Assembly: GCA_000004985.1 (NCBI GenBank)
Contig: GG738879.1
Direction: 5' to 3' (one strand)
Length of the DNA stretch: 64,000 bases
Source of the DNA: Naegleria gruberi
Taxonomy: Eukaryota
Of this stretch, positions 18,829 to 63,124 are shown in pieces; position 1 is the stretch's first letter; the number at the start of each line of letters is the position of its first letter. The notes under the pieces are model-generated. The model searched no databases. It was not told where the DNA came from and saw only the letters and a program-made list of their open reading frames with translations. The position numbers were made by a program, and so were the translations under genes.

Positions 18829-20852
18829 ATGAGTCAAGTTTGTTATAAGAATCGTAAAGGAGATGCGGAGGATGAATTTTCGAGGTTTTCTTCCTTCACT
18901 CTTGACCATACAACACTTCGGAAGTTGTTAGTAAATTATGGTGAATATCCTTCAAAATATAGAATGCTAATTTGGAGGTTTTTATTGAATATTCCTGAAA
19001 ACAAAGAGTCCTTTGAAGTACTCTACTCTAAGGGAATTCATTTTACTCAGTACAGCCTTCACAAACGATATCCAATAAGTAATTCATCAATATTTAGGAA
19101 AATACAGAGAATCATTTCAGCTATGGCAAATCTATCACCAATTTTTGGTGCCGTGGAATATTTGCCTGAATTAATATTTCCGTTCTTAAAAGTGTTCAAT
19201 CAAAGTAGCTCAACTATCTTCGAAATAGTATTAACATTCTTTGGTATGTAACAATACTTTAAAATTACGTATTAATTGATTGAATAGTTAATTGGGGAAA
19301 GGAATGGTTTGAATTCTTCCCTAATCCACCAGCAACTGTTCTTAACTATGTTGCTTCCTTGCTTCAAATTTATGACAATGACGTACTGGAGCATTTGTCA
19401 TCTCTTGGGGTGTCTTCTGCTTCTTTTGCTTGGCCAATGTTAAAAAGCTTATTTACTGAGCTCTTTACAACTGATCAATGGCTAAGAGTATTTGATCATA
19501 TATTTTCTAATCCTCCCTCTTTTATATTTATGTTTATTGTATCATATCTGAATTATTTTAGGAGAAGTCTTTTCCAAATTAAAGAAAGAAGAGAAGCAGA
19601 AAACTTCTTCCACAGTATTCACGCTTGTGATCTTGAAAAGATTCTAGCTTTTGCTTATGACATTCAAAAAACTCAATATGAAAGTTCTGTACAAAAGTTG
19701 ATTGCCAAATCATATGGTTCATTTAGTTTCTTGCCGAAAGGTCATTATAATATTTCTATTCGCTTTCCTGAATACTCTGTAGATTATCAATTAAAGCAAA
19801 GAGAAAGAATTGTAAAAAGTGAAGAGGATTTTGATAGAGCCAGAAACAATTATATTCAATTGAAAAAGCATAATGAGGAGTTTGAAATAGAGCATAGGAA
19901 CTGGTTAATAAGACAAAAAGCATTAATTGAAGTAAGCAAAACGCAAGAAGAAGCTTCAAAGAAAATGGAAAGAGAAATATTGGAGGAAAAAGAGAGAGTT
20001 AGACAAATGGAATTGGAGGAGCGCTTAAAAAATGTAGAATACTTGCAAGAAAGAAGAAAGATGTTAGCCAATTTACATGAGGCTGAATTGAATGCGAAGA
20101 CATTAAATCAACAAAGATACATGGAAAATCTAACAATTGACACACATAATGAGATCAAACACAAAATGACGGAAATGCAATTAGGGGAAATCGAAAAAAT
20201 GGAGCAAGCTAAATTGCAAGATATTGAGTGTTTCGTAAATCCTCCATCCAATTACTATTTTACAAAGAACCCATCTGCAACTTCACCAAGAAAACCAGAA
20301 ACTGTAAATATCAAACCACTTGCAAAAGAGGTTATTATCCCTGTATTTATCCCACCTGAACAGGCAAAACAGCCAGTTTCAGAAGCGATAACAAAGGACA
20401 CGACAGAGATTAACTCTCCTGAAATGTCAGAGCCGAATTCTAAAGAATCAAGTTTTGCAGATTGTCTTCAAGTGCATCTACTAGGAAATGAAATTAATTC
20501 CTTAGAAAAAGAAATAGAATCAACAGGAAAGAATCTGACTCCAAAAGATATCAAACTTCAGGCCATCATACAACCTGAAATCCCTCAAAAGAAAAAAGTG
20601 AAAAAAAAGAAAAAATTGGTAGAAAAGTCTAATGAACAAACATTAAAACAGAAGAAGAAAGAAGCATCTCCAAAAAAGGCTGTTACACTTCCTTCGCTCA
20701 AACAGATGAACTCACGAATGAGAAAACAAAACAAAAAGTATTACCAGAAAAGCAAAGGCAAGCAAAATCTCCAAAAAGAAAGAGCCCAAAGAAGAAGGAA
20801 ATCAAAGAAAGCAATCTTAAGGAGAAACCACAAGAAATGGTCACCCCGTTAG
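18829..20852 (+). CDS. TBC-domain Rab GTPase-activating protein with Lys/Glu-rich coiled-coil C-terminal half. Exons 18829-19243 and 19288-20852.
   Basis: TBC features (RMLIWRFLLNIPENKESFEVLYSKG ... WLRVFDHIF). 44-nt intron GTATGT...TTGAATAG joins the two ORF-track pieces in frame (…TFF-G|VNWGKEWFEFFPNPP…). Confidence 0.75.
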
Positions 20853-20981
20853 GTCATACTTCCCAAATTTCAACAAGTTCAAACTCATCCCAACCGGATG
20901 AGGATCGATTCAGATTATTACAAGAACAAATATCAAAACAAAAATCAGAGCTCAAAAAATCAGATAGGACTATGAAACATA

Positions 20982-21851
20982 TTGAATCGATTGCATCAAA
21001 CATTTCCAAACCATCAAGTAAATCCTTCAAACATTTCAAGGAGTATTTCATCATCCCCATCTATTGAGAGCTTAAAGAACACCAATGTTTTTAATAGGTT
21101 TGATTATTTAAAGAGCGTAGATTCTAGAGTTGATGATTTAATTCAAAAGAAGTTTAAGGAGTTTATTACAAGAAAGGTTGAACAACCAAGAGAAAAGAGT
21201 TTTAATGTTGAAGAGCAAAACCTTTCGTTCCCTACAAGCATATCAAACACAAACAGCGCATCAATACTTAACTCCTCTGCATCAACACAGTCACCAAATC
21301 CAACACGAAATAGCACTCTCAGAGGAACAATATCTGCCACTCTTAACCCAAGTTTTTCTCAAACTTCTTACTTGGCTCCTTCTTCATGTATTGATAAATC
21401 CAGTGACAATGAGAGCTCTTCAGATGTGAACTCTTTATTAAGACATAGTAGCGAATTTGAGACAACATCCTCTAAAAGAATGAACCTTTCTTCTGATTCA
21501 CATTTATACTCAGCATCCCCAAGATCCTATTCTGGAAGTTCAGGTTACAAATCGAAGACTACAACAGGTACATCCGGATCTCATGTAATTAATGCATATG
21601 TTTCCATTTCTGAAGCTCCTTATCATACCAAGACATCAGATGAAATAGTTAATGAGATTTCAGATACAAGAAGTATTGATGAATTACTTGAGAGTTTCAA
21701 CACGTCCTATCCTTCAATTTCAAGCAGTATAGAATCAATTAAGATCAAGCCACAAGACTATTCCTCCCTTGATCTAAGTTTTTTTAGTGACGAAGATGAA
21801 GTTACGACAAGTGTAAATACTTCAGCATTAATGACAGAAAAAGAATTTTAA
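20982..21851 (+). CDS. Ser/Thr-rich low-complexity protein (289 aa from a TTG-initiated ORF). Possibly a 3' continuation of the TBC gene or a separate gene.
   Basis: An 870-nt stop-free ORF in 65% AT DNA is unlikely by chance. No ATG at its 5' end. In the same frame as the TBC gene, but separated from it by stops; an intermediate +2-frame ORF (20636-21067) bridges them. Its stop codon overlaps the stop of the convergent cyclase gene. Confidence 0.45.
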   Translation: MNRLHQTFPNHQVNPSNISRSISSSPSIESLKNTNVFNRFDYLKSVDSRVDDLIQKKFKEFITRKVEQPREKSFNVEEQNLSFPTSISNTNSASILNSSASTQSPNPTRNSTLRGTISATLNPSFSQTSYLAPSSCIDKSSDNESSSDVNSLLRHSSEFETTSSKRMNLSSDSHLYSASPRSYSGSSGYKSKTTTGTSGSHVINAYVSISEAPYHTKTSDEIVNEISDTRSIDELLESFNTSYPSISSSIESIKIKPQDYSSLDLSFFSDEDEVTTSVNTSALMTEKEF

Positions 21852-24800
21852 TTCTTAATAAATTTCTCAGCTTCAAGTTCAGCATCAACATTGTGAGTTT
21901 CAATAATAGGTATTGGTTGTTGGTTTTGCTTCATGTTATCGTCTCCTATTGGAATAACAATATCATACTTATCAATATCTCGTTTCATACTCTTAGACAT
22001 TTCTTCTAAAGAGATGTCCGTTTCGTTTGGAATAGGATGTTGGTAATGTTTCTCTTTGAGAATGTAGGTAGTAATTTGTCCTTTACCTTTGATTTCAACA
22101 CCTTTTCTCTCATCGAATTCAAAGATATCATAGACTCTTTCGTAGGTTTGTCTGGTTACTTGGATTTTACCTGGAATACCAGTTGATTCCATTTTAGATG
22201 CAAGAGTAACATTTTCACCCCACAAATCATAAGCAAATTTCAATGTACCAATACAACCAGCAATTACACTTCCTGTGTGTAACCCAATTCTAATATTTAA
22301 AGTTGTTTTCTTTTCTAGATTATACGCATAAATAACAGAATACATCTCCATAGCAAATCTTAATACTTTTTCTGGATGGTCTGATTGTTGAAGATGTAAA
22401 CCTCCAACACAAAAGTAAGCATCACCACTAAATTGTAATTCAGATTATTATCTAATTTTCAAGCAACTTACATTGTTTTAATTTTTTCGAGTCCAAATTT
22501 GCTAATACCTCTATCGAATCCGTTAATAATAGCATTCAACATTTGAATCAAATCAATAGCTGACATGCCTGATGACATTTTGGTAAAGTTAACCATATCA
22601 CTAAATAAGCAAGTGGTATCATCAATTTTTTCTGAAATGTAGGTTTCACCAGCTTTTAACTATTATTTTACAGTAAATGTTCAATAACAAAACTTACTCT
22701 TGCAGCTACTTGCTCAGGAAGAATATTCAAAAGTAAAGAATCACTCTTCTTCTTTTCTTCTTCAATTAACATATTATGTTTCTTCTCTGAAGTGATATCT
22801 TTGATAAACAAACTGATTAGGTTACTCTTTTCAAATGATGAGACACTCATGGATACTTGAGCAGGGAATGTTGTTCCATTCTTTCTTTTAGCTTCCACCT
22901 CAAAAGACTCTCCATAACTTCTTATGGCATTACCCATCGATGTTACTGTATCTCTTATCTTATTAGAGCTTGCATCTGTAAATAAAAGAGATGGTGGCTT
23001 TCCTAATATTTCATCAGCCTTATAACCCAACATATTCAAAGCACTTGGATTGATAATATCAACAAACCCTGTTTTGCTATTCAACACAACAGCTCCATCA
23101 ACAGCAGCATCTACAAAAAGTTTAGAACATGAGCAGGCTTGAAAACTTACCCAAAATAGCTTTTGTCTTTGAAAATTTCTCTCCTTTTGCAGCCTTCTTA
23201 CCATCAGAAAATGTAAAGTATAAAATATAGTTCCTAATCTCCTCGAATTGCTCCAAAACATCATATTGAATGAAATTAAACATCCTTCTTAATTGGTGGT
23301 TTTCATTATCGAATCTTTTGACTTGTAAATACTTTGTGTAAGTCAATATAAGTAATATTGCAACAGAAACGCTTGTTATTGCTGGACTGATAATTCTAGT
23401 AGGTGATTTGTAAGTGTCTACATATCCAGTAAGTACAGAATACATTTTGGAAGTGAATTCACTGGAAATGGCAAAAATTCCAATAAATCTTTCTACCAAA
23501 ACACTATTAATATATGTATGTCTGTATGCATCCTCATTGAATCTATCTGCTGATAAAGTATATGCATCCATGAGTTGATCCAATCCATAACAAGTGTAGT
23601 TTTCTGCAGTGCAGTTTTGGCTCAAAATCTTGATATCTAAAGAAGAAACTCCTGTTATGCCAGAAAATCCATTCTCAATTGTACCGTAACGATAATCTAA
23701 CCAGGCTTCCATCATCTGTTGTGAATGTTGAATTATTTCATCGTGGAATGATTTCATGCTAGTTTGTAATATTGAAGAGTCACCTAATAAAAGTTCTCCA
23801 AGTTTAAATTTAGCTCTTTGTGAAATTTGTAATACCTTTGTACCATGCTCTACCTTTAACATAGTGTTGAATGAAGTCTGCATCATGTCCAAGCACTCAT
23901 AAAGGAGTAAAGCACTTGCAATAGCAGTGAAGAGGAAAATAGCAATAATGAGTGCTGAAATTATTCTCTTAGGAGTGAAAATAGATTTTTGGATTTTCAC
24001 AATCTTATCCTCGGATTTTTGTTCCAAATGGTGAAATACTGTACCCACAATATCCTTAGGAAGCTTTGCAAAAAGCTTTGTTAATTTTTCCATATGAAGT
24101 AAGTGAATATAAGAGAAAATTGTGTAGACAATAATGAATAGCACGTATACCACAAACACACCAACAAGGGTAAAAATGAAAACATTCTTTTCCTGATTAA
24201 GAAAAGTGTCACTTCTTGCGATCAAAGTGCCACAAAAACTTTCCAGACCACCAGTAATGGCTATTCTGTTTAGCCATATATACAAGAACTCATAATTTTC
24301 ATAAATATTCATGTAATCATCAAGTTTCCAAGCATATAGCTTTGTAGCAATAGTGTGGAGCTCATTTGTAATATCAGATAAGGAAGTATTTTTAGGGGTT
24401 GATATAAGACTGGATACAGATCCTGTTTGTAGTACTGGAACAAGAACTATTTTGTCTGCATAAACAAACTGCTTCATACTCTCTACCTCAAATCTTTGTT
24501 CGTTCATAATATCTTTAACCTTTTGTGTAATTGTCACTATGCTCTTAACTCTTGCCTTGTGGTTTGCCCATTCTGATTTAAATCTATTGGTAGTGTTGGT
24601 TGGAGATAATATCTGAATGTACCTAATACCTGAAAGAATTAAGTAGGGAACAGGAGACACTTGGCAAAATTGATTTACAGTAGTAATACGGTCGCTATCA
24701 TCTGCAAGTCCCAGATTCAACCCTAAAACAATTGCAATAATAGCAATTGATATAAATCCCAATGATTGAAGGAAAATAAATTTCTTTTTGCTTTCGTTTG

Positions 24801-26839
24801 GCTTGTTGATGGCTGACCTGTATATAGTTTGTTTGTCTTTTTTGTAATCTCCATATTGACTAGCTGATTCCAAATTTTCCATATCGTTCTCATCTTGTTT
24901 TGGTTCTAAGTAATTTGGACCATCATCTACATAATTGACAGGTAACACCTTGTTGCCTGGTAAATTACGTTTCTTAAATTCTGACTTTGAGTCAGAGGAA
25001 AATCTTCGTTTCTTTGATTGTTCATCCTCCAAAATGTTTGCTTCAGCATAAAATTCATCTGCCAATTCAGCTTCAAAAAGGAATTCTTCTAAAAACTTTG
25101 CATAGCTTCTCAATACTTGGGCGTTATTATGGAAATTAACAAGTAAGTTATTGAACGTTGTACTTGAATTTTCCATGTATGTGTGCATCATTTTAACCAA
25201 ACTATATACCTTTTCCGAGTTTTCCTCATTAGACACAAAGTGTTTCCAGAATAGCTTTTGATATTGTCTTAATCTTTCCTGTTGTTTCTCCACAGTGTCA
25301 AGAATGTGTCTAAGTTCTAAAGAATTTTTTCCTGTTGAAATTGAAGCCTCTATTTCCTTAGTTCTTTGGTAAACAAGGTAACGTAATACAAGATTAGAGT
25401 TCTTTTTACCTGCCTTTGCAAGTAGGTGAAGGCAAAAGCTTGGTGAATATTGATCTCCCATCATTTTCTTAAATATATATAAAGATGAAATTATCAGAGT
25501 GTAGGTATCTAATTCTAATCTTTGATTTGTAGCAACCTTTATCAAGTTGGTTATTAACTCATCTTCTTTAGTTTTGATAGAGAATTTCAAATATAAGTTT
25601 AAAAATTTTGGATTGACTAATTCATTAACACTAGTTTGAACGGTGATATTCTCGTTCTTGAAATCAGTTAATCTTCTTCTGACATATCTCATAACTATCT
25701 GTGTATAAATTTCAACAATAGAAAATCCAATAAAGAAAAATATAATCACAGAGCCAAATCCAACACCAAAAAGATAACCCAAACCAACATCTTCACTTAC
25801 AGGATCATTCGCTACAATGGCCAGTATGCTGGATATTGCAGCACCTGCTTTAGATAAGTACAACCCACCAAAAATCGAATTCACAATTCTATAGTGAAAT
25901 GGTAAATCATAAATTAGAAAACCAAATATAAGGAGTGTGAAAAATAAAAAGAGTAAAGGTCTTGCAATAAATGCTTGGGGTGGTAATATTTGAGAAATGA
26001 TTAAGTGGATTTGGTTGATTACTACAGCAGAAGCAAATACAACAGGGCTGTCCATACTTAGCCAAGACTTACCCTCAACCCATGTGTCACACGATAGAAG
26101 TATTCCAAGAAATGTGAGAGGTAATTGTAATATCATAAATAAAAGTGATATGGCTGCAAAGGAACCATTTAAAGGACTCCAACAACCTATGGTAGGAAAC
26201 CTTCTTAGAGCATATTGAGCAACTCCATCCACTACTAGACCTTGTTTAGAATAATCACAAGCCCAAAAAGCGGTCAAGCAAAATACAAATCCAAGTCCGA
26301 ACACTCCAAAGAACATGCATATAGCTCTAATTGTATTCTTGATTTTTGATGAATGCTTACTTCCTCTATGAAGAGCTTTATAAGCATAGTAGATTGCAAC
26401 CAGAGCTATCAACTCTAACACAGCAAGTATTACAGCAACGGCAAGAAAGAGCTCATAAGGATACCAACTGGCACCTAATGTTCTTGGAACTGCAATAATC
26501 CTAACACCTAATTTTGCAGACTCACCCCAATTAAATTCTAAGATGGTTAATAAATACATTATTTCAGGAATACTTACCAGACTCCCAACCTAGAGCTATT
26601 GATTGCTCGACCAATACTATATTCAATAATATGAAAAGCCAATTTGGTAATGCTTTTGGCAATTTTATAGAAACTAGAAAGAAGAATAATGTATCTTCTA
26701 ATTTTCCAACAATACTACTACCCCGAGTGAGGGTTGTATTACTAGTTTTTGATCTACTAGAAGAGCCTTTTGAAAAAACCGACTCTCCATCATGTCCTAC
26801 GGGTGAATGATCACTAGAGTCTCGCATCGAGTAGGCCAT
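21848..26839 (-). CDS. Polytopic membrane sensor nucleotidyl cyclase: two multi-TM modules + PAS domain + class III adenylate/guanylate cyclase catalytic domain, about 1610 aa. Exons (minus strand) 26578-26839, 23151-26537, 22698-23110, 22472-22659, 21848-22427.
   Basis: Four GT-AG introns of 38-44 nt (GTAAGT donors) restore a continuous frame. Exon 1 has one TM. Exon 2 has about 8 TM, a long coiled cytoplasmic region, then further TM segments flanking two Cys-containing loops. Exon 3 is a PAS fold (DAAVDGAVVLNSKTGFVDIINPSALNMLGY...). Exons 4-5 give the cyclase motifs FSDMVNFTKMSS...LNAIINGFD...KIKTIGDAYFCVGGLH...GLHTGSVIAGCIG...LWGENVTLASKMESTG. AC versus GC specificity is not determinable by eye. 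Confidence 0.85.
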
Positions 26840-29247: not shown

Positions 29248-29274
29248 ATATTCGTGTAAAAAAACAATAAATAT

Positions 29275-32200
29275 TTATTCAATTAAATCAAATACACTTT
29301 GAACAACCTCTGCATGTCTTTCAGAGAATGTGTTGATTAAGAACATGATAAGCTTCTTTTGCAAGTCTGGAGTTAATTTCGATTTTCTATCCTTATTATT
29401 ATTAATAATTTTGTATAAAATAGAGTCACGAATCATATTTTCCTCATTTCCAGAATTAGCCTCCTTGATGAGATGGAGGAGTTGAACTGAAACATAGAAT
29501 GATGATGTGTAAATATTGAGAAGAATATCTAGTTTGGTTTGTTCCTCGACTTCTGTTTCCTTTTCATAGAAATCACAATAAATATCTGTTGCAATCAAAA
29601 GTCTATCCAATAACTTTTGTTGATTTTCCATAATTACCCTATTATCTGATGGAATACCTTTGTAGATAGAAATTAATAAATCAACAGCACCCTTATAGCT
29701 CTCATTTGCCCAATTTTGGTTTGGTTCCTCAATAGCAAGATCAGTTGCAAGTTGGGCTTGATAGTATGTTAGTTTGAGGAAATAAGAGGCAGAATTTGCT
29801 GTGTTAAAATTATTGTTAGCAACGGATGCAAGTTTCAACAGAGATAATCTGTTTCTGGTGGTTCCAAGCTCTCCTAATGGAAGGATGTTTTGTGAGTAGT
29901 CATCTGACAAATCAGCCAAAGAGGATTCAACTTCACCCAAGTTTCCAACTTGGATATAGTGCAACCATTTGAGGTTGGAGTTTGGTTCAATAACTGAGGC
30001 CATTTGTTCTCCACATCTGAAACTCCAATTGTTTGCCAATAACTCGTGATACTTTTTAGAATCTCTAAGATATGTTAATAGATATGTTGCAAAGTCTTTG
30101 TATCTCTTTACATAATGAGAATATTTAACAGTTCTTTCCTTTTCAGTTGGATAGTTCTCCTCTGCTATTTGTATCAAGTGTTTGAAATCTCTATATTTTT
30201 CTGCTAAGGTTAAGGCAAAAGTCTTTGGTGAAATTTCTCCAACATCCTTCATCTTTCTGAATGTACCAATTATTAAATCTCTTTTAGCCTCAAAATTGAA
30301 TGTCTGGAAATGAGAAACCTCTTTTTCTTTCATGGTTTGAAGAATTGAAAATGTAAAATCTGCTATTTCATACATTTGGTTGAGTATTTGAGGGACTGAT
30401 TTACTTTCTGAAGCGCTAAGATTACTGGCTGATCTTTCAAATTGTTCAAAAAATCTTGTAATAAGGAGACCTGGCTTATCAATTGTCCACGTACTTCCAC
30501 ATTCTTTAATATTGGTACCAAATCTATTCAATACCTTCCTAAATTCAAGTATCCCTTCTGAAAAGCATAAAAAGACTTGATTTACAAGAGATAATGTGTT
30601 ATAAGTGGTTTGACTAGAAATAATCTTTTCAGATTGAATTTGATAAATCAAACTTTCAACTCTTGAAACAAGAATGTAGAAATTTTCAACATTACATTGC
30701 GATTTGGTAAAATTAGCCTCTTCACAGCATAAGTTCATAGCTTGAATAATCAAATCTTGAGATGATTTTGATCCAAGTTGATTTTGTAACTCTCTTAACT
30801 TGATGCAAACAAAGAGCTTTTCACCATTTTGTAAAATTATTCTTAAATCCTCTTCTGAAAGGTTTTCAATAATTTGGTAGTCAACTAGGTATTGTAAGAA
30901 GTCCATATATTCATCCATCTTTTTTTGCAATGATCTTAAAATCAAAATAGATAGTTTGTCGTAATAAATCATTTCAGCATCAATAATCAAACTACCGGAT
31001 GTTGGAATGCTATCTACCAACATTTGACTAGCTCTAACAATAGATGGTCCAAAAACAGAGGAGCGAATGAAATTTAAAGAGCTGATTTTCTCACGTTTTC
31101 TAAAATTGCTTAAAACCTTATTAGCAAGAGTAGTTTCTGCTTCTTTTGGATCAGAATCCGATTCTTGATCCATGGATTGATCTACACAGTTTGATGCCAG
31201 ACTCATACTATCTTCCAATTTAACAATCCTCAGTGCCTTGAAATTTCCTGATTTATCAATTAAGCAACCATCCAAACCATCAATCATAATATCTCCTAGA
31301 GAAATAATACCATTGTAATCACATTGTGTAATAATTTTGTTGTCTTCAATTACAGTAATACTATTCAAAGTATGTACATAAAGTCTATTGCAACTCTTCA
31401 TAATTTGACATTTGGAATAGAATTTAGAGTTGATTTCACTAAAATCACACTTATCTAAGCGGATAGGTGATTCTACAACAATATTGTCGTTAATTTGGAT
31501 TGGCCATAAAAGATATTCGATAGTTGAACTACTTCTGGCAGTATCAAGTGGTTCTGGAACCATACATGTTAAAAGATAAATCTGTTCAGTTTGTTCATCA
31601 AAATTAAAATCTAACAGTCTCAATGAATAGTTTCTTATCATGTTCAAGCTTTGTAACTCATGAGAAATGTCCTTTCTCCAACAAAGATCCTTTCCTTGCT
31701 CTGTATATTTCGAGATACATTTCTCTGTTAAGATAAGCAAATCAGTCTTTGAAGATTGAATAGATAGTAATGATTCTGGTTCAAAATACTTAATAGTTGT
31801 TGGTTTAGTCCAAGAGGTGAACCAGCTAAACAAACCCTCATTAGAAACTGAAGAGGTATTTTGATTTCCGTAAACTTTCTTTTCCTTAATTAGGTTGACA
31901 GCTCCATTTGATAGTAATTCAATTTCAATGAAATGTCCACATTCAGTACCAATATAAATATTATTGTTTGAACTTAAACTATTCACAATGCAATTAATAT
32001 TTAATTTTCCATCCGAACTGAATGATGTAAAATCTAAAATATTTCCAATTTCATATTTAAATCTTGAGTCGTCATTATTCAAACTCAGATCATACCAATA
32101 TTTAAATTTTCCTTGAGCAGAGCAAGTGAAAATAGAAAAGTGGTCATCACTGCTTCCTAAAATAGTAACAAAATATTTGTCTGACTCGGAAAGTGGAACA

Positions 32201-32481
32201 TTCTCCAAGCATAAAACAGGAGAGTTTTCAGATTCCAACAAAAACTTTTTTACATTCCAAACATAAAGCTTATCACCATCCAATACCCAAGTAATTCCAC
32301 TATGATGAATACCAGCATTGGTGATGTCATTTCTAATGTGAGCAGGAAATGGGTAAGCCATTATTGTTTTGGCATCATACAAAAATTGATTATCTACTGC
32401 GGAAGACTCTAAAGAATTTAATTTTGTCTTCTTCATCAAGGATTCATCTGATGATGGAAGACCTTGTTGATAGCGTTTCAT
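29275..32481 (-). CDS. Large beta-propeller + alpha-solenoid protein (1068 aa), possibly a Nup133-like nucleoporin
   Basis: Intronless ORF. N-terminal half beta-rich with WD-like repeats, C-terminal half helical. The architecture fits scaffold nucleoporins, but no motif is decisive. Confidence 0.4.
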   Translation of the reverse strand: MKRYQQGLPSSDESLMKKTKLNSLESSAVDNQFLYDAKTIMAYPFPAHIRNDITNAGIHHSGITWVLDGDKLYVWNVKKFLLESENSPVLCLENVPLSESDKYFVTILGSSDDHFSIFTCSAQGKFKYWYDLSLNNDDSRFKYEIGNILDFTSFSSDGKLNINCIVNSLSSNNNIYIGTECGHFIEIELLSNGAVNLIKEKKVYGNQNTSSVSNEGLFSWFTSWTKPTTIKYFEPESLLSIQSSKTDLLILTEKCISKYTEQGKDLCWRKDISHELQSLNMIRNYSLRLLDFNFDEQTEQIYLLTCMVPEPLDTARSSSTIEYLLWPIQINDNIVVESPIRLDKCDFSEINSKFYSKCQIMKSCNRLYVHTLNSITVIEDNKIITQCDYNGIISLGDIMIDGLDGCLIDKSGNFKALRIVKLEDSMSLASNCVDQSMDQESDSDPKEAETTLANKVLSNFRKREKISSLNFIRSSVFGPSIVRASQMLVDSIPTSGSLIIDAEMIYYDKLSILILRSLQKKMDEYMDFLQYLVDYQIIENLSEEDLRIILQNGEKLFVCIKLRELQNQLGSKSSQDLIIQAMNLCCEEANFTKSQCNVENFYILVSRVESLIYQIQSEKIISSQTTYNTLSLVNQVFLCFSEGILEFRKVLNRFGTNIKECGSTWTIDKPGLLITRFFEQFERSASNLSASESKSVPQILNQMYEIADFTFSILQTMKEKEVSHFQTFNFEAKRDLIIGTFRKMKDVGEISPKTFALTLAEKYRDFKHLIQIAEENYPTEKERTVKYSHYVKRYKDFATYLLTYLRDSKKYHELLANNWSFRCGEQMASVIEPNSNLKWLHYIQVGNLGEVESSLADLSDDYSQNILPLGELGTTRNRLSLLKLASVANNNFNTANSASYFLKLTYYQAQLATDLAIEEPNQNWANESYKGAVDLLISIYKGIPSDNRVIMENQQKLLDRLLIATDIYCDFYEKETEVEEQTKLDILLNIYTSSFYVSVQLLHLIKEANSGNEENMIRDSILYKIINNNKDRKSKLTPDLQKKLIMFLINTFSERHAEVVQSVFDLIE

Positions 32482-32532
32482 TTTTATTCTTCAAAAAAAC
32501 AATTTTTTAAAAGAACAACAACAAACAATACG

Positions 32533-33000
32533 ATGAAGACTGATGCCATTGTTTTACTCTATAGGAAAATGTTGAAGCAATCTATATTGCTACCAACTGT
32601 GGAAAAGAGAGTAAATGCTATCAATGAAATTCGTTCAACATTCCGAAAATTTAAAAACGAAACAAACCAAGAAATTATTCAACAACAACTCAAGAAGGCT
32701 CATGATAAATTTGGTTATCTGTGCATGATAACACCAAAGAGATTACATACTGAAACCTCTCAAATTGATGGTAAAACGCAATTAGTAAAAATTGATGGTG
32801 AATGGAAGGATGTCAATGCTATTGGTGAAGATGATAATTTAACAAAGGAAGAAAAAGCAACATGGAGCAATTGGGGAAGAGGAAATTTAGATCCAGACCA
32901 AGTTAGAAAACATGAACAATTGTTGAAAAGACAACACTTTATGGATGGTCCAATGAAAGGCTATAAACCAATCTATGAAAGAAATTGGATGAACGATTAA
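32533..33000 (+). CDS. LYR-motif (Complex1_LYR-like) protein, probably mitochondrial
   Basis: AIVLLYRKMLKQ...IRSTFRKFK matches the L-Y-R...F signature. The ORF-track start at 32464 overlaps the upstream divergent gene; 32533 is the more likely start. Confidence 0.45.
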   Translation: MKTDAIVLLYRKMLKQSILLPTVEKRVNAINEIRSTFRKFKNETNQEIIQQQLKKAHDKFGYLCMITPKRLHTETSQIDGKTQLVKIDGEWKDVNAIGEDDNLTKEEKATWSNWGRGNLDPDQVRKHEQLLKRQHFMDGPMKGYKPIYERNWMND

Positions 33001-33656: not shown

Positions 33657-34781
33657 ATGAAAAAACTCTCTAATGCTCTCAAACCTTTAACATTGCTCAC
33701 TTTGGGAGGAGCAAGAGTGAGTTTGAGACCTACTAGTTTAATTATTAATAAACTGCAAAGTAAGACAACTTTTGGATATCATTCAACACACAAAAATAAT
33801 AGTACAACAAAAACAACATTAGAAGTTCCACAAACTTCCGATTCAAAAGAAAAACAACAATATGATTTTCAAAAATTACCAAAACTTTATTATTTATTTG
33901 TGATTGGAGGCAGTCTTGTGATTATAGCAAATTTTGTAGCAATTTATTTTGCAAAACAAGAATTTGATGAAGCAATTGGAAAATTCTCTTTGGATTTTAT
34001 TGGAAAAGAATCATTTAGTGATGAAGAAATTGAACAATTAAAATCATTGATTAAATCAACTACAGGACTTTTAAAAGTTGGATATTACCAAAAGATTTTC
34101 TATGAATCAAATTTATTGAAAGATTTAACATCACTTCAAGGAAAAACAATTACAAGTGAAACATCTAAACAATACGAAGTTCAATTGTTAATTGATAATT
34201 TACTAAAAATTTTGGATAAGTGTCCTTCAGATGAATTAAGATCAAAACAATATTTATATGTTTCTCCAGACGATAATGAACTAAACCAATGGGTGGAAAA
34301 GGATGCAGATACTTCTAAACAAGCTGGTATTTCTTCCAGTTTCATGACTTTACCTGCATTTTACAAAACTCTATGCTTTACTACTATTGCATCTCTTTCA
34401 TTTTTAAGACTTAATAGAATGCCTTATATTACTCAAAAGGGAAGAGTTACAATTGTTTCAATGATTTTACTTTATAGTGCATGGGTTGGAATGTTCAGAC
34501 CAGCTTCAATTAACAGAATTTCTGGAATTTTCAGTTCATTATTCGAATCAACCAAAGATGATAAGACTACAATTAGAGCGCCATTCGTTCATTTAATTTT
34601 CCAACAATATCTTACAATATTTTCCTTCATTATATGGTTGATGATGTATAGAGCAATCAAGTTTGTAATTCTTCCAGAATTATTATTAGGGTCTGATGAA
34701 CCAATCAAGTTTTTGGAAGCTCAACAAGAAAAAGAGAAGAAGCAATTAGCTCAATCAACTTCAGAAAATGAAAATAAATAA
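33657..34781 (+). CDS. Hypothetical membrane protein (374 aa)
   Basis: Presequence-like basic N-terminus and at least 3 hydrophobic segments. Uninterrupted ORF. Confidence 0.5.
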   Translation: MKKLSNALKPLTLLTLGGARVSLRPTSLIINKLQSKTTFGYHSTHKNNSTTKTTLEVPQTSDSKEKQQYDFQKLPKLYYLFVIGGSLVIIANFVAIYFAKQEFDEAIGKFSLDFIGKESFSDEEIEQLKSLIKSTTGLLKVGYYQKIFYESNLLKDLTSLQGKTITSETSKQYEVQLLIDNLLKILDKCPSDELRSKQYLYVSPDDNELNQWVEKDADTSKQAGISSSFMTLPAFYKTLCFTTIASLSFLRLNRMPYITQKGRVTIVSMILLYSAWVGMFRPASINRISGIFSSLFESTKDDKTTIRAPFVHLIFQQYLTIFSFIIWLMMYRAIKFVILPELLLGSDEPIKFLEAQQEKEKKQLAQSTSENENK

Positions 34782-34782
34782 A

Positions 34783-35061
34783 TTATTCTTCCTTAAGTTT
34801 GTACGGATTGAGGGGCTTGGCAAATTTAGGCATGAACACAAATAATTTGATGTAGAGAGGAATGAAGAGAATGATTCCGATAATTGCAATAGCCACAAAA
34901 ACATATCTTACATAGATGTAAGTATCCACTTTTTGTTGTGATGTAGTTAATACTATATAATTTTGAGATGTAATATCAAGAGGTAATTTGGGAGAAAGAA
35001 GGAAGAAGAGAAATATAAAGATAGGAATAAAGAATCCAATAAATATGACACATCTAAGCAT
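34783..35061 (-). CDS. Small hydrophobic ORF (92 aa, 2 TM), uncertain
   Basis: ORF only. An adjacent 61-aa TM ORF at 35093-35278 lies on the same strand. Confidence 0.25.
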   Translation of the reverse strand: MLRCVIFIGFFIPIFIFLFFLLSPKLPLDITSQNYIVLTTSQQKVDTYIYVRYVFVAIAIIGIILFIPLYIKLFVFMPKFAKPLNPYKLKEE

Positions 35062-35971: not shown

Positions 35972-37372
35972 ATGATTTTTAAAATGTTTATGCGTGCGGA
36001 AACAATACTGGAGTCTTCCGAAGACTTTCAAGTCGATGAAATTGGTTATACATATGATAGGATTATTCTAGGAATTATGACATCACTTGTTTGTCTTTAT
36101 ATTTTATTACAGATTGGTCTTACTTTCTACCACAAGCACAAAGTACCATCATTCCATTTCGGTTTTTTGGTGCTGTGTTGCATTTGGATGATTTTGAGGA
36201 CAGTTTATTATTTTTCTGTTATTGAAAATTGTGGTGTTTTCTTCTTGTACTACCTTCCTATTTGTGTAGAATTTGCAGTGTTTACTTTACTAGTAGTTTT
36301 CTTCTTCAAATTATTAAATTATGGAGGAGGTTGGGATAAATCAATTTTCTCCCGTTCTCATAACAATTCAACACCTTCTAACAGTATTTTAGTAGGTTCT
36401 GGTGTTCAATCTCCTCCGGAGAGAAGAAGATCTTCCAGGAATAGAATCAATGATAGTTATGGTGCTGTTTCTAATCACCATCACGTCTCTGTAAATGCTG
36501 CTTCAGAGGATGATGACACAAAATCTGATGCTTCTTTTGTGAGTCAAAATTTAGAAGATGTTATTTACGAAGAAGACTCTAAGTCAAGTTACTATAAGAC
36601 ATCAACAGGTGCCAAGTATTACAAGAAACTTCTTAAATCTATCTGTACAAAAAAGGTGATTTATATGGTAACATGGTTGATTTCCAATTTTGTATTTTTG
36701 GCAATAATCTTATCTTTCTGTATTACTTCATGTACTACTGCAATAGAAATAGAGCAAACTAATTCTATTATTGGATTTGCAAGTGCTTGCTCATTCACTA
36801 TTTTGATGATTATGTTATTAATTATTGGTATTAGAATGGTTTACATATTTAGAAGAAGAAATGATATTCCTGTGAGCTTAAAAGTCAGTAGAATTACTGG
36901 ACCAGGAATGATTGTCGTCATTATTGTGAACTGTTTTGTATTCACCAGTAGAGCTATATTTGATTGTTTGATTTTAATTCCTAATTTCCCAAAAGATTAT
37001 TTGAAAATTCAATTCTTAAGATCTACTGATTATGGAAGAATCTTTATTATTGTTACTAATTTCTTCTGGGAAATTATGCCAATTCTGAGTATTTTAATAT
37101 TCTTTAGCAAATTCAGTTTCGGTAGAAATGTTGTGAATATGAGCTTCAAAAGACAAGTTCAACCAGAGGACGAAACTCCAGAATCAGAATCAACAAATGT
37201 TGATCATGTTTTTGATCCTAACACTCCTTTGGTTATTGGTACAAACAATAACAGAAATGGAATGTCCAAAAGAAATGCGAGTTCAGGGTATTTAATTCAG
37301 GAGGGAGAAACAACAGAATCATCTCTTTATGATGATATTGAAACAGATAGCTCTTACAGTGCAAACGATTAA
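35972..37372 (+). CDS. Seven-transmembrane protein with a large Ser-rich loop between TM3 and TM4 (GPCR-like/TOM1-like topology)
   Basis: 466-aa ORF with 7 hydrophobic helices by inspection. No family motif recognised. Confidence 0.55.
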   Translation: MIFKMFMRAETILESSEDFQVDEIGYTYDRIILGIMTSLVCLYILLQIGLTFYHKHKVPSFHFGFLVLCCIWMILRTVYYFSVIENCGVFFLYYLPICVEFAVFTLLVVFFFKLLNYGGGWDKSIFSRSHNNSTPSNSILVGSGVQSPPERRRSSRNRINDSYGAVSNHHHVSVNAASEDDDTKSDASFVSQNLEDVIYEEDSKSSYYKTSTGAKYYKKLLKSICTKKVIYMVTWLISNFVFLAIILSFCITSCTTAIEIEQTNSIIGFASACSFTILMIMLLIIGIRMVYIFRRRNDIPVSLKVSRITGPGMIVVIIVNCFVFTSRAIFDCLILIPNFPKDYLKIQFLRSTDYGRIFIIVTNFFWEIMPILSILIFFSKFSFGRNVVNMSFKRQVQPEDETPESESTNVDHVFDPNTPLVIGTNNNRNGMSKRNASSGYLIQEGETTESSLYDDIETDSSYSAND

Positions 37373-37373
37373 T

Positions 37374-38456
37374 TTATTTGAATAGTTTAGAAAAAGTGTG
37401 CTTTTCCTTCTCCTTATACTTTTCCAATTCAGCTTTTGCTTTCTTGTGCCAAACCTCAATTTCCTTATTTCCTAAATTATTTTCAAGCAAGTCTGAAAAA
37501 TCCCTCTCACTATTTTGCCAATCTCCTCTTGAAAAGTATGAAACACCTCTTCTAAACTTGGCCTTTGTCTCAATTGCACTGATACCTTCCATCTCATTAT
37601 GATGGGTAACTAGTTGAAGAACTTTGTTGCACAATTCTATAACTGTTGCATATTCTGATTGTTTGATTTTAACTGCTGCAATATTTCCCAAAATAACAAT
37701 CTCTTTTTCTTCCAATAATTTTCTTTCATTTTCTTCTCTCATACCAGGCGCCAAATATCTAAATGCTTTCTCATATTTTTCTAATGCTTTTGAAAGATTT
37801 CCTTGCTTGAAAAATTGATTTCCTAGTTCTTTCAATTGTTCTGCAATTTCCATCTTTTTCCCAAGAGAAACATCTTCATTATCTGCTGGGTATTGAGGAT
37901 AAATATCTCCTTCCTCAACATTTTGTTGGTCTAGTATTCCATCACTCTGACCATGTTCAAGAACTCCACAATCCATAAAGGTAATTTCAATACTTGGATA
38001 ACCAGTTGTTTCAACGACAGGAATTCTTTCAATTCTACTAAGTATGGAAGTTCCTTTAGTTATTTTTCCAACAGGTAACAATTCATTCTTCATGTAAGAA
38101 AGGTTTGTTGTAGAAAACAAGAATTGTGACGATGCTTCTTTTGTTGATTTCTTATCAATGAACATAAGGAAATCCTCGTCACGTTCACTATCATAATAGT
38201 CATTTGCAAAATCCCCATCCACAACTTGTTTTCCTCCTTCTCCAGTGTTGAATTCATAATCACCAGCCTGAATCATCATCTTTTTAATTACTCTAAAAAC
38301 TTTACTTCCTTTGTAGCCTACTGGTCCTTTGCATAGAGTAATTATATTATTACAAATATTTGGGCATTTGTCTCTGAATAATTCTACTACAATTCGCCCT
38401 AATGAATTTCCTTTTACCTCAACTTCGAAAAAAACTCTATCAATATCCTGGCTCAT
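37374..38456 (-). CDS. Cyclophilin-40-like peptidyl-prolyl isomerase with C-terminal TPR repeats; cyclophilin domain divergent
   Basis: GRIVVELFRD...YKGSKVFRVIKKMMIQAGD is the cyclophilin core. The segment equivalent to the substrate-binding/catalytic strand (…SQFFIT) is degenerate (SSQFLFST). Canonical TPR helices sit at the C-terminus (ALEKYEKAFRYL...). Confidence 0.7.
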   Translation of the reverse strand: MSQDIDRVFFEVEVKGNSLGRIVVELFRDKCPNICNNIITLCKGPVGYKGSKVFRVIKKMMIQAGDYEFNTGEGGKQVVDGDFANDYYDSERDEDFLMFIDKKSTKEASSQFLFSTTNLSYMKNELLPVGKITKGTSILSRIERIPVVETTGYPSIEITFMDCGVLEHGQSDGILDQQNVEEGDIYPQYPADNEDVSLGKKMEIAEQLKELGNQFFKQGNLSKALEKYEKAFRYLAPGMREENERKLLEEKEIVILGNIAAVKIKQSEYATVIELCNKVLQLVTHHNEMEGISAIETKAKFRRGVSYFSRGDWQNSERDFSDLLENNLGNKEIEVWHKKAKAELEKYKEKEKHTFSKLFK

Positions 38457-56898: not shown

Positions 56899-59800
56899 TT
56901 AAAGATATTTGACTAATAACTTGACATCATGAACTTGTTTGTTAATTCTATAAAATGGTCTTAATGTTCTACCCAATAATTCAAGTTGTTCATCTTCTCC
57001 TTGTTTGAAAATGAAATACTTGTAACAATCAATTGGATTCCATTTCAAATTCAAATCACAAATTAATTGAGATTCTTCCAAGGTTGATTCATTGAATGAC
57101 TTAGTAATTTCAACTTGTTCAATTGGTTTCAAGTTCAAATCTAACAATTTTTCACCAATATTCAAATAACCTAATTTCATTGCATAATAATCTTCTTCAT
57201 TACTATCAATAATGGAATGTTCATCAGAAGGTGATGGAGTTGAATCACTTTGAATACAATCAATATAAATATTTGTAATTTCATCATCGAATTCAATAAT
57301 ATTATTCAAAGAATAAGTTTTTAATATCCAACCACCATTCATCATTTCAGATTTAACATTTTGATCCATTTTACTCAAATCAATTAAACCTAATTTTACA
57401 GTTTCAATTAATAAATGTAAAGAAGAATATTTTTCATTAAATTCATTACTATATTTAAATGCATATTGAATATTTGTTATATTATTATTTAAATTATTAT
57501 TTAAATTATTTAATTTAATACTAGTTTTAAATAATTTAAATCTTGTTAATTTTACTTCATCTTGATTAAATTTTCCATAAAATTCTAAACAATTTCCACC
57601 TAAAAAGGAATCTAAATAATTAAAATTCCAATTAATTGAATATTCTTGTCCAATATTTAAAATTTTATAATTTCTAAAATTAGGTAATAAATCTTGTTCA
57701 GAAATATCATTCCATTTTAATACATTTTGATTATTTCCATAAATGTAATAATTTAATCCAACACCTGAATTAAAAAATGTTGAAAATAAATTTTTAATTA
57801 ATTTTTCATTTAAATAATTTGAATTATTTTCATTTTTACTTTTTAATTTTAAATTTAAAGAACAATTTGAAATTCTTGATCCAAAATTTCCCGCCCAATT
57901 TTCAACATCCTTTCCACCATGTTCCCAAATTATTGTTTTAATTAAATTTATATTTTTTAAAATAAAATTAAAATTAATACATTTCCAATTAGAGTTACAA
58001 ATAATTTCACCAGAATTAAATTCTTTAATAATTTTATCATTTTTATCTAAAAATTTAATTTTTAAATAAAATAAATCTTGACAATTTGGTTCAGTTCCTT
58101 TTATCCAACATTTTGCATTTAAAATTAAATTATTTAAATTATTATTATTTCCATTTATATCAATTTCATTTAATATAAAAGGTAAATTAATTAATTGTTC
58201 CATTTTTGACCAATTAAAAGATGAAATAAAAGATTTTGATTGATTAAAATCATTATTTAAAGATTTAATCCAATTTCCATTTATATTCCAACCTTCAAAT
58301 TCATTTAATTGTCCATTTCCATTTTTTAATAATTCAATAATTTTATAATTTCCATTCCAAAATAAATTTTCAATATTTTCATATTCATTTCTAATTAAAT
58401 TTAAATTTTCAATATTTTCTAAATTTGTAAAATTATTAAAATAATTTTCATAAATAAAACCTGGAGCAAATAAGGCAATAGATGTTTCATATTTGTTAAT
58501 TTCATTTAATGCTATTTTAGTATTAAATTGTCCACCACCATATTGTCCTCTACCAAATATATCTATACCTGTAAATATTTTATATTTATTTAATTTTTTA
58601 TTTAATTTTAAATTATTTTCTATTAAAATATTTTGTAATAGATTTAAATTATTTAAATTATTATTATTTTGTAAATTATTTTCTAATAAATTAATAAAAT
58701 TATTTAAATTAATTAAAGAATTATTTAACATTTCAGGTTTCCAATTATAATTTAAAAAAATTCCATCACTTTCATTTAAAAAAATTAAATTTTTTTCATT
58801 TAATTCATTTTGCCATTTTAATTCTCCATTTGGATAAATAATTGAATCATACCAAATTATTTTAGAATTTTTAATTAATTCTTTACATTTTAATTTTAAA
58901 TATTTAATAAAATTAATTAATTTTAAACATAAATCTTGATTTAAATTACATTCTATATTTAGAAACCATCCATCAAATTTATAATAAATTGCTAAATTTA
59001 TCAAATAATCAGCAAATTGTTCATAATTTCCATTTAAAATTTTAGAAATTTCTTTACTTCCTTCATCCCATTCAAAAATTAAATTTCCTAAAACTAAAAT
59101 TCCATTTTTATGTGCAATTTCAGTCCAACCAACAGGTGGTATTGTAATTCTATTTAATATTTAATATATTTAATATTATATAATATTTAATATTTAAAAT
59201 AAATTTAAAAAATAAAAAAAACAAACCTTTCATGACTAAAATAAATAAAAATATCAACAAATTGCCAATAATTAAAATTAAAAGTTAAAAAATCATTTCC
59301 ACTTTGAATAAATTTATCATTTAAATATCCACCTTTCATATCATGACATAAAATTACTTTTTGTCTATTTTTAGTAAAATTATTTTTAAAATTAATTTTA
59401 GCAATATTTAAATCATCTTTAAAATTAAATTCTTGATTAATTGAATAAATTGGTTCTGAAATTATTTTAAATGGTTCATTAGATATTTCTAAAGATGGAA
59501 ATGAATAATTAAAATTAAAATTAAAAATTTCATTTGAAAAATAAAAAAATAAATTTTGTAAAATTCCTTTAAATGGTTTTGAATTTTCTAATTTTGGTGG
59601 AATTATAAATGGATTAAAATTATTTATAATTGAATTTAAATTATTAAAATTTAATTCTTGTTCATATTCTAATTTATTATATTTAGTAATTTTAATTAAT
59701 AATTTATTTTTAAATATTAATTGAATATGATACCATTTATATAAATTAAAATTATAATTAATTATTAAATCATTAATTATTAATTTGTTATTTAAATATG

Positions 59801-60062
59801 TTGATAATTTAATTAATAAATCTCCTTTTTTTAAAATTGTAAAATAATTTGAATTTAATAATTCTAAAAAGTAAATTGAAAAGGAAATATTTAATGTAGA
59901 TTCAGAATTAGAAATTATTATTGGTGCATGAATTTTTAAATTTTCATTATTATTTGTAATAAAATTACATGATGGAAGTAAATTAATTAAATTTGATGGT
60001 AATGAAAGTTGTAGATGTGGATCGGATAGATGATCACTATCATTACTAATACTTTCATTCAT
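56899..60062 (-). CDS. Cytosolic endo-beta-N-acetylglucosaminidase (glycoside hydrolase family 85, ENGase). Exons about 59227-60062 and 56899-59149. Extremely Asn-rich.
   Basis: GH85 signature across the 77-nt intron (GTTTGT...AAATAG): KVILCHDMKGGYLNDKF...NYWQFVDIFIYFSHE|RITIPPVGWTEIAHKNGILVLGNLIFEWDEG...FDGWFLNIE. The long C-terminal region is dominated by N/I/K-rich low complexity. Start codon uncertain (first in-frame ATG at 60062; the ORF opens at 60125 with TTG). Confidence 0.8.
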
Positions 60063-60295
60063 TTTATTAGTATTATTATTATTAACAACTTGGTGATGAA
60101 TGTGAAGAGGTTCACCAGCAAGCAAATCGAGAGATGATGTAAATTTTTTAGGCTTGATCTTTCAATACAATTTCAGCCTTGTTTTCGTAAGTACCCGGCA
60201 GAGAAGATAAAATTCAGTGTCAAACATAATTGGCGCCAATCAAACTACAACAACAACAATAACACTAAGAAGATTAAAAACAAAGAATTATAAAA

Positions 60296-63073: not shown

Positions 63074-63124
63074 TATTTTTTGAACATCACATTAATATAA
63101 TTTATTTGTTCTTTTTGTAATAAA

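Follow-up and report, generated by a model that had tools for sequence, protein, structure and literature searches.

How two convergent genes can run into one another at their stop codons, and what such contact means for their transcripts, is the question raised by a 64,000-nucleotide stretch of Naegleria gruberi DNA (contig GG738879.1 of assembly GCA_000004985.1; hereafter the window). A sequence-only reading of this stretch had singled out two gene pairs, one with stop codons that share 2 nt and the other with genes that terminate 1 nt apart, and had concluded that either obligate antisense transcript overlap or unusually precise termination must follow. The geometry of both pairs was correctly described. 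In pair 1, the stops have 2 nt in common (21849-21850) and the coding sequences including stops overlap by 4 nt, as the ORF coordinates and an independent metagenome contig, L007, agree; the junction is identical in L007 (99.5% identity). In pair 2, a single nucleotide, 37373, separates the stops at 37370-37372 and 37374-37376. A third pair that the earlier reading did not mention has its stops 1 nt apart at 34781/34783. The ORF coordinates and strands put the members of each pair on opposite strands, 3′ end toward 3′ end, which is the convergent or tail-to-tail arrangement (Table 1). We consider it quite probable that these are ordinary tail-to-tail protein-coding pairs in the compact N. gruberi nuclear genome and that essentially all of the spacer between them has been deleted. 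The arrangement is conserved in related species and is the ordinary extreme of a packing style that is already known.

Table 1. Genes of the three abutting pairs and hexamers at or near their stops, in window positions.
Feature	Position	Strand	Remarks
RabGAP-TBC gene (pair 1)	18829..21851 (at least this span)	+	Ser-rich C-terminal part is ORF 20982..21851; TAA at 21849-21851
Multi-exon TmcB-TPR / PAS / adenylate-guanylate cyclase gene (pair 1)	21848..26830	-	Terminal exon ~22426..21848; ORF 21848..22351; TAA stop 21850->21848 (TTA on + strand at 21848-21850)
AUUAAA hexamer, candidate dual-use stop/poly(A) signal	21847..21852	-	Covers cyclase stop and 2 nt of TBC stop
AAUAAA hexamer	21857..21862	+	Begins 6 nt past TBC stop; antisense to cyclase codons Phe-Ile (TTT ATT)
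374-aa membrane protein gene (third pair)	33657..34781	+	44.5% identity to N. fowleri neighbour gene
AAUAAA hexamer	34777-34782	+	Overlaps stop of 374-aa gene
92-aa two-TM protein gene (third pair)	34783..35061	-	Stop 1 nt from stop of 374-aa gene
GPR137-like multi-pass membrane protein gene, 466 aa (pair 2)	35972..37372	+	Stop TAA 37370-37372
Cyclophilin + TPR (Cyp40-type) gene, 360 aa (pair 2)	37374..38456	-	Stop 37376-37374; Pfam Pro_isomerase and TPR
AAUAAA hexamer, dual-use stop	37373..37378	-	Overlaps Cyp40 stop and the lone spacer nucleotide; class described for N. gruberi (PMC11529991)

More exotic forms of contact were considered and set aside. True overlapping coding genes would share sense codons; the overlap in pair 1 consists of the stops plus 1 nt of each gene's last sense codon lying in the partner's stop (21848, 21851), and pairs 2 and 3 share no nucleotides at all. 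Stops of the Blastocystis type are completed by polyadenylation and leave no complete genomic stop at the end of the ORF. This type was ruled out, as all six genes of the three pairs carry a complete genomic TAA. A ciliate-like alternative genetic code, prompted by the tiny spacers and AT-richness, was dropped after the Cyp40-like model proved to be 100% identical to an NCBI N. gruberi predicted protein.

The stops would not really touch if one ORF of a pair were not a true gene end, for instance because its terminal exon was mis-called, the gene is a pseudogene or the assembly is wrong there. We regard this explanation as very unlikely overall, and for pairs 2 and 3 it is largely refuted. Judged by sequence comparison, each of the six ORFs is a genuine gene end whose stop is encoded in the genome, since orthologues in the species compared (N. 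lovaniensis, N. fowleri, a further Naegleria and Willaertia) keep the same C-termini. For pair 2, a weak GPR137_N match in the orthologues of the plus-strand protein is in keeping with its earlier 7TM label, and its C-terminus, ending in SYSAND, is conserved in five species. The Cyp40-like label of its partner is borne out by cyclophilin and TPR Pfam matches, its C-terminus (...KLF(K/Q)) is conserved across species, and the identity of the model to the NCBI protein also argues against a false end. In the third pair, the 92-aa protein is 70% identical to a called N. fowleri gene, and its C-terminus is likewise conserved.

Pair 1 calls for a correction to one of its members. What had been taken for a Ser-rich ORF and a gene of its own belongs to a RabGAP-TBC gene, whose C-terminal part it encodes: Pfam RabGAP-TBC matches lie at 19359..20852, a 1144-aa TBC orthologue from N. 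lovaniensis aligns to 19248-20522 and, in the same frame, to 21201-21842, and in L007 an unbroken ORF of at least 703 codons leads to the same TAA. The minus-strand gene was rightly called a cyclase, given its Pfam Guanylate_cyc match; its domains were assigned from Pfam matches and its exon blocks by tblastn, using the orthologues of N. lovaniensis and Willaertia. Its last 29 codons, which are similar in length to the N. lovaniensis end (29 vs 32 aa) and not conserved in sequence, count in favor of a false gene end. The window's copy of the TBC gene also has a frame break, which is a caveat on the reality of this pair. Compared with L007, an indel shifts the frame by -1 near 20687 and another by +1 near 21020, and the two produce an in-frame stop at 20850-20852. 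Against a false end, translation of the frame-shifted middle part is still identical to the L007 protein, which speaks for a reference error or a change of very recent date; the L007 ORF runs on uninterrupted, and the alignment of the conserved TBC C-terminus with its N. lovaniensis counterpart reaches to within 3 codons of the TAA. Should strain NEG-M truly have these indels, its Ser-rich tail might go untranslated.

With the gene ends in place, the flagged pairs can be compared with their neighbors. Across the 10 convergent junctions of the window, the gaps measure -4, 1, 1, 15, 24, 27, 30, 51, 153 and 256 nt (median ~25), whereas the divergent junctions have an approximate median gap of ~400-415 nt (Mann-Whitney P = 2.5e-4). 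The earlier statement that the other convergent pairs lie 24-30 bp apart captures the gaps of 24, 27 and 30 nt and misses those of 15, 51, 153 and 256 nt as well as the third 1-nt pair. Several further junctions in the mechanical ORF list (window 33000/33107, L002 5160/5221, L006 5312/5703, L003 385/1549 and L001 12046/11994) were discarded as spurious, being made up of antisense ORFs or of exons that belong to one gene. If gaps are modeled as exponential with the median seen here, at least 3 of 10 junctions at ≤1 nt are expected with P ~0.013. The convergent gaps show a mild pile-up at zero, yet the gaps form a continuous distribution, with the flagged pairs in its lower tail. Seven of the 10 junctions are ≤30 nt apart, and therefore pairs 1 and 2 are not exceptional and the 3′-end overlap that we infer for them is the local rule.

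The expected extent of that overlap comes from nanopore direct RNA-seq of N. gruberi NEG-M, in which 3′ UTRs have a median length of 39 nt, cleavage takes place 15-20 nt downstream of AAUAAA, and AAUAAA overlaps 11-13% of stops; in the genes concerned, the median 3′ UTR is 22 nt (PMC11529991). Because of these distances, each gene's 3′ UTR and poly(A) signal would lie on the antisense strand of its partner's last codons, and 3′-end overlap of this kind would hold for most convergent pairs in the window. The claim that 3′ UTRs and poly(A) signals must overlap on opposite strands survives insofar as it follows from published UTR lengths and hexamer-to-cleavage distances; what falls away is the notion that this is special to the flagged pairs. 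One member of each abutting pair has a dual-use hexamer (AAUAAA for the Cyp40 and 374-aa genes and, as a candidate, AUUAAA for the cyclase). In the two trichomonads examined, AUUAAA ranks second among the signals in use, and at the cyclase stop it is a variant outside the published overlap count, which was for AAUAAA (PMC11529991). No AAUAAA overlaps the stops of the TBC, GPR137-like and 92-aa genes; A[AT]TAAA is absent within 60 nt downstream of the GPR137-like stop, and no canonical hexamer lies within 60 nt of the 92-aa gene's stop. At the gene ends of the window's convergent junctions, 8 of 20 have dual-use hexamers (binomial P vs the published 13% = 0.002-0.01), and, so far as this small sample goes, tight convergent junctions seem to have more dual-use stops than the published 11-13%.

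These observations fit a mechanism in which deletion would strip practically all spacer from between convergent genes. Naegleria 3′-end formation would need little beyond AAUAAA or AUUAAA, often overlapping the stop, and ~15-20 nt to the cleavage site, so that the whole 3′ UTR of each gene could sit on its partner's antisense strand, fitting opposite the last 4-13 codons. The cyclase mRNA is predicted to end at ~21837-21827, directed by AUUAAA at 21852-21847, the TBC mRNA at ~21872-21882, directed by AAUAAA at 21857-21862, and the Cyp40 mRNA at ~37363-37353, directed by AAUAAA at 37378-37373. With ends at these predicted positions, the two mature mRNAs of a pair would have tens of nucleotides of complementarity to one another, and Pol II would read some distance into the partner gene before terminating. 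The cleavage sites, the transcript overlap and the absence of a dedicated function for that overlap are what we infer from this scheme. Transcripts would escape overlap if the partners were never co-expressed in one cell state, or if cleavage took place at the stop itself to leave a near-zero 3′ UTR, and the distinct amoeba, flagellate and cyst programs of Naegleria and the very short 3′ UTRs known in N. gruberi can both be counted for such an escape. We find it extremely unlikely, however, given cleavage 15-20 nt past the hexamer and a dual-use median UTR of 22 nt, which put a UTR of 0-1 nt outside the reported behavior, and given stops that are fully encoded in the genome and need no completion by a poly(A) tail.

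The import of this arrangement is mainly for annotation and for the reading of expression data. Most convergent Naegleria neighbors are closer together than two 3′ UTRs, so unstranded RNA-seq, knock-ins or C-terminal tags, and 3′-end edits will usually touch the neighbor's 3′ UTR or poly(A) signal. Many genes have doubly constrained last codons, which specify protein on one strand and serve as 3′ UTR or poly(A) signal on the other.

Alternatively, the abutting arrangement may itself have been selected, with complementary 3′ ends acting as a cis-natural-antisense device that couples or anti-correlates the partners' expression via mRNA duplexes, dsRNA-derived small RNAs or transcriptional interference. 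We think this rather unlikely. It is consistent with pair 2, for which the stop-to-stop distances in five species including Willaertia are -4 (stops share 2 nt), 1, 6, 9 and 11 nt, with N. gruberi at 1, and with the third pair, which has a gap of 1 nt in N. gruberi and 2 nt in N. fowleri. The mild excess of junctions at ≤1 nt can be added to these. General synteny and purifying selection on both C-termini, which would be walls to deletion, explain the conservation equally well, however, and the cross-species junctions are not independent observations because they are orthologous. The partner genes are also functionally unrelated. Pair 1 argues against selection as well: its genes are 98 nt apart in N. 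lovaniensis and their orthologues are not neighbors in Willaertia, and therefore the overlap is recent. Means of coupling can be pointed to, in that Naegleria has candidate Dicer-like and Argonaute homologues (PMC13315211) and convergent yeast genes with short spacers form mRNA duplexes and mutually interfere (PMC6993858, PMC3900390). Taken together, the pile-up and the conservation of pair 2 as far as Willaertia leave some room for selection. A more ambitious version, which we consider unlikely, would make abutting stops and stop-embedded AAUAAA a selected and conserved "shared 3′-end module" of heterolobosean genomes, in which cleavage inside the partner's last codons gives a constant ~35-60 nt of mRNA complementarity that feeds dsRNA/RNAi- or interference-based coupling of unrelated genes. 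If the overlaps do yield small RNAs or coupled expression, the conserved pairs would be handy test loci, but nothing here points that way.

Read as ordinary compaction, the junctions have relatives in several known systems. Closest are the dual-use stop/poly(A) signals and ultrashort 3′ UTRs of Giardia, Spironucleus and N. gruberi, which involve the same organism and the same signal class; that study handles genes singly, whereas here the hexamer also covers the partner's stop or the lone spacer nucleotide, and the predicted cleavage falls within the partner's coding sequence (PMC11529991). [quoted passage not shown] Those pairs share with the present ones the tail-to-tail orientation, short spacers, the 3′ mRNA complementarity predicted here and the potential for duplexes or interference, but the yeast UTRs overlap within spacers that are usually ≥100 nt, whereas in the present pairs the stops overlap or have 0-1 nt between them and the UTR would lie in the partner's coding sequence. 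S. cerevisiae is also without RNAi, in contrast to Naegleria with its candidate components. Williams et al., in a 2005 PNAS study cited in PMC3629993, are reported to have described overlapping transcription in the highly compacted genomes of microsporidia and nucleomorphs, where, as is predicted here, loss of intergenic DNA pushes transcripts into neighboring genes. Those genomes are extremely reduced, belonging to parasites and endosymbiont remnants, and a transcript there often extends across several genes, whereas N. gruberi is a free-living amoeboflagellate with defined AAUAAA-directed 3′ ends. Its genome is ~41 Mb. In convergent Arabidopsis pairs, as is predicted here, the 3′ ends of both genes are formed in one short shared stretch of DNA, but the overlaps and UTRs are long, whereas the predicted shared region here is a few tens of nucleotides and coding (PMC3032780). 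Naegleria-specific literature on convergent or overlapping genes yielded nothing relevant.

The other possibility raised at the outset, unusually precise termination, is a mechanism that the junctions do not need and for which RNA folds and a terminator scan gave no terminator-like structure. Folds of 62 nt on both strands of the three junctions gave no stable RNA stem-loop, being no more stable than shuffled sequences (z -0.7 to +1.6), and the scan found no terminator-like site at the pair 1 junction; a hairpin or intrinsic bidirectional terminator was rejected on these grounds. Pair 1 does have a 7-nt inverted repeat, AAGAATT/AATTCTT at 21841..21856, centered on the overlapping stops. The chance of such a repeat being centered within 3 nt of a given point is ~0.005 per junction, and it is probably incidental.

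The two pairs of convergent genes that had been singled out for their touching stop codons were found as described, with the stops of pair 1 sharing two nucleotides (21849-21850) and those of pair 2 separated by the single nucleotide between 37372 and 37374. The standard genetic code applies, so these stops are real stops. The minus-strand ORF of pair 1 is the final exon of a gene of five exons, whose product combines TmcB-type TPR, PAS, and cyclase domains; this exon encodes the C-terminal half of an adenylate/guanylate cyclase domain. Its plus-strand partner, described from sequence as a Ser-rich ORF, does not stand as a gene by itself and forms the C-terminal portion of a RabGAP-TBC gene. 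In the same reading frame, the N. lovaniensis TBC orthologue aligns with 21201-21842, at most three codons short of the stop, and the C-terminal end is conserved (...KPQDYSSLDLSFFS...SALMTEKEF-stop in N. gruberi and ...SCLISDE-stop in N. lovaniensis). A metagenome contig with 99.5% identity to the window (L007, ENA ERZ929261) has the junction exactly as in the window (...AAGAATTAAAATTCTT...) and is an independent confirmation of it. The TBC ORF of this contig is unbroken over at least 703 codons to the same TAA. Compared with L007, the window lacks 1 nt near 20687 (a -1 indel) and has an extra 1 nt near 21020 (a +1 indel). The middle of the TBC gene is thereby shifted out of frame, and an in-frame stop arises at 20850-20852. 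Because the translation of the shifted segment is still identical to the L007 protein, the frame break most likely represents either an error in the reference or a change that arose very recently (a frameshifted allele), and it is a standing caveat on pair 1.

The 360-aa minus-strand protein of pair 2 matches a predicted Naegleria gruberi protein at NCBI with 100% identity, with its next relatives in N. lovaniensis, N. fowleri, and Willaertia magna, and its cyclophilin domain and TPR repeats constitute the Cyp40 architecture. The plus-strand gene encodes a multi-pass membrane protein whose orthologues have a weak GPR137_N match. A third pair of genes in the window also has stops 1 nt apart (34781/34783); its 92-aa ORF has a conserved C-terminus and 70% identity to a called N. 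fowleri gene, and the N. fowleri orthologues of this pair have a 2-nt gap.

Features of the abutting gene pairs, their poly(A) hexamers, and the Asn-rich genes in the window
Feature	Coordinates	Strand	Remarks
Pair 1, plus ORF (TBC)	20982..21851	+	TAA stop at 21849-21851
Pair 1, minus ORF (cyclase)	21848..22351	-	TAA stop, TTA at 21848-21850 on + strand
Cyclase gene exon blocks	26830-26579, 26538-23152, 23132-22695, 22659-22471, 22426-21848	-	tblastn with orthologues
AUUAAA, cyclase	21852-21847	-	covers cyclase stop and two nucleotides of TBC stop
AAUAAA, TBC gene	21857-21862	+	antisense of cyclase codons Phe-Ile
Third pair, plus member	33657..34781	+	374-aa membrane protein gene, AAUAAA on its stop
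Third pair, minus member	34783..35061	-	92-aa two-TM protein gene
AAUAAA, 374-aa gene	34777-34782	+	on the 374-aa gene's stop
Pair 2, plus ORF (GPR137-like)	35972..37372	+	TAA stop at 37370-37372
Pair 2, minus ORF (Cyp40)	37374..38456	-	stop at 37374-37376
AAUAAA, Cyp40	37378-37373	-	on Cyp40 stop
GH85 (ENGase) + FBA gene	56899..60125	-	Asn-rich, low G+C
Cdc6/ORC-like AAA gene	61547..63073	+	Asn-rich, low G+C

The stop-to-stop distance of pair 2 is 1 nt in N. gruberi, -4 nt in N. lovaniensis (L001; GAT TAG versus GAC TAA on the opposite strand, with 2 nt common to the stops), 6 nt in a Naegleria sp. (L008, ENA ERZ27254845; the spacer is exactly AATAAA), 9 nt in N. fowleri (L002), and 11 nt in W. 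magna (L003). Both C-termini (...SYSAND-stop and ...KLF(K/Q..)-stop) are conserved in five of five species. For pair 1, the distance is 98 nt in N. lovaniensis (L004), and the two genes are not neighbours in W. magna (L005). These distances, together with the conserved pair 2 C-termini, indicate that pair 2 is an old and stable abutment and that the pair 1 overlap is recent. The deposited N. lovaniensis model of the GPR137-like gene (L001 6915-8279, PYSW02000049.1) has 285 aa, ends at 7354, and is 3'-truncated; the ORF runs on to 6915, and its TAA shares the 2 nt with the Cyp40 TAG. At 1457-1468 of L008, a single poly(A) hexamer makes up the whole intergenic region, with the Cyp40 stop (TAG) on one side and the stop of the GPR137-like gene on the other.

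Published nanopore direct-RNA reads from N. gruberi NEG-M give a median 3' UTR of 39 nt, and the 11-13% of stops that are dual-use, overlapping an AAUAAA, have a median 3' UTR of 22 nt (PMC11529991). In each abutting pair, a hexamer overlaps the stop of one of the two genes. No canonical hexamer is present within 60 nt for the GPR137-like gene or the 92-aa gene. Combining the hexamer positions in the window with the published hexamer-to-cleavage spacing predicts cleavage at about 21837-21827 for the cyclase, 21872-21882 for the TBC gene, and 37363-37353 for Cyp40. With cleavage at these sites, each 3' UTR would lie entirely within the last 4-10 codons of the partner, and the two mRNAs of a pair would have roughly 35-55 nt of complementarity to each other. 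Published UTR spacing and hexamer positions thus favor the proposed 3' overlap on opposite strands. Of the 20 gene ends at convergent junctions, 8 have a dual-use hexamer, compared with 11-13% genome-wide (binomial P 0.002-0.01; small sample). Junction 44377/44408 has dual-use stops on both sides of a 30-nt spacer, which would approximate one minimal 3' UTR common to both strands, and the junctions of 24-30 nt can be understood in the same way as the abutting pairs. Convergent junction 29247/29275 (27 nt) has a perfect palindrome of 14 nt, AATAAATATTTATT (29266-29279), which places AAUAAA on both strands, with the minus-strand hexamer overlapping the stop of the minus-strand gene.

The sequence-only reading had also raised unusually precise termination. 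A 7-nt inverted repeat (AAGAATT/AATTCTT, 21841-21856) is centred on the overlapping stops of pair 1 and is marginally unlikely by chance (~0.005 per junction). RNA folds of 62 nt over the three junctions on both strands were no more stable than shuffled sequences, and a scan for terminator patterns gave no match at the pair 1 junction. Unusually precise termination is not supported, and such a mechanism is not needed.

The window has a G+C content of ~33%, and its genes are closely packed and contain introns. Its 10 credible convergent junctions measure -4, 1, 1, 15, 24, 27, 30, 51, 153, and 256 nt (median 25.5), whereas start-to-start distances at divergent junctions, which are approximate, have a median of ~415 nt (Mann-Whitney P = 2.5e-4). 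Inclusion of the orthologous loci gives 19 junctions, of which 13 are ≤39 nt and 5 are ≤2 nt; the 19 are not independent, since several are orthologous to each other. Within this continuous distribution, the two flagged pairs lose their standing as special sites. Junctions of ≤1 nt (3/10) are somewhat above a simple exponential model (P ~0.013), and we read this excess as a "wall" effect in which spacer deletion is halted at two selected C-termini. One could propose that abutment was selected for antisense coupling of the partner genes, as the conservation of pair 2 and Naegleria's candidate Dicer-like and Argonaute homologues (PMC13315211) might suggest. However, this idea is unnecessary because the pair 1 overlap is recent, the functions of the partner genes are unrelated, and the gaps are continuous. 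Instead, the stop contacts add a new example of what genome compaction is known to bring about. The overlapping transcription of microsporidia and nucleomorphs is among the closest known cases, as are the ultrashort 3' UTRs and dual-use stops of N. gruberi and Giardia (PMC11529991) and the Arabidopsis convergent pairs with shared polyadenylation regions (PMC3032780). The window pairs are of the same kind at its limit, with the spacer gone and each predicted UTR within coding sequence. Strictly speaking, they do not count as overlapping coding genes, since no sense codon is common to both members of a pair.

Two further observations concern other parts of the window. The divergent pair at 32464-32533, formed by 29275..32481 (-) and an LYR-like gene from near 32533 (+), has starts ~50 nt apart, far tighter than the other divergent junctions (about 170-2000 nt). 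The stretches 57000-60000 and 62000-64000 have a G+C content of 12-23% versus ~33% elsewhere and coincide with the bodies of two genes for Asn-rich proteins. The adjoining ribosomal-protein and EF-hand genes have normal composition, and foreign acquisition or local mutational bias is a possible origin of the low-G+C stretches.
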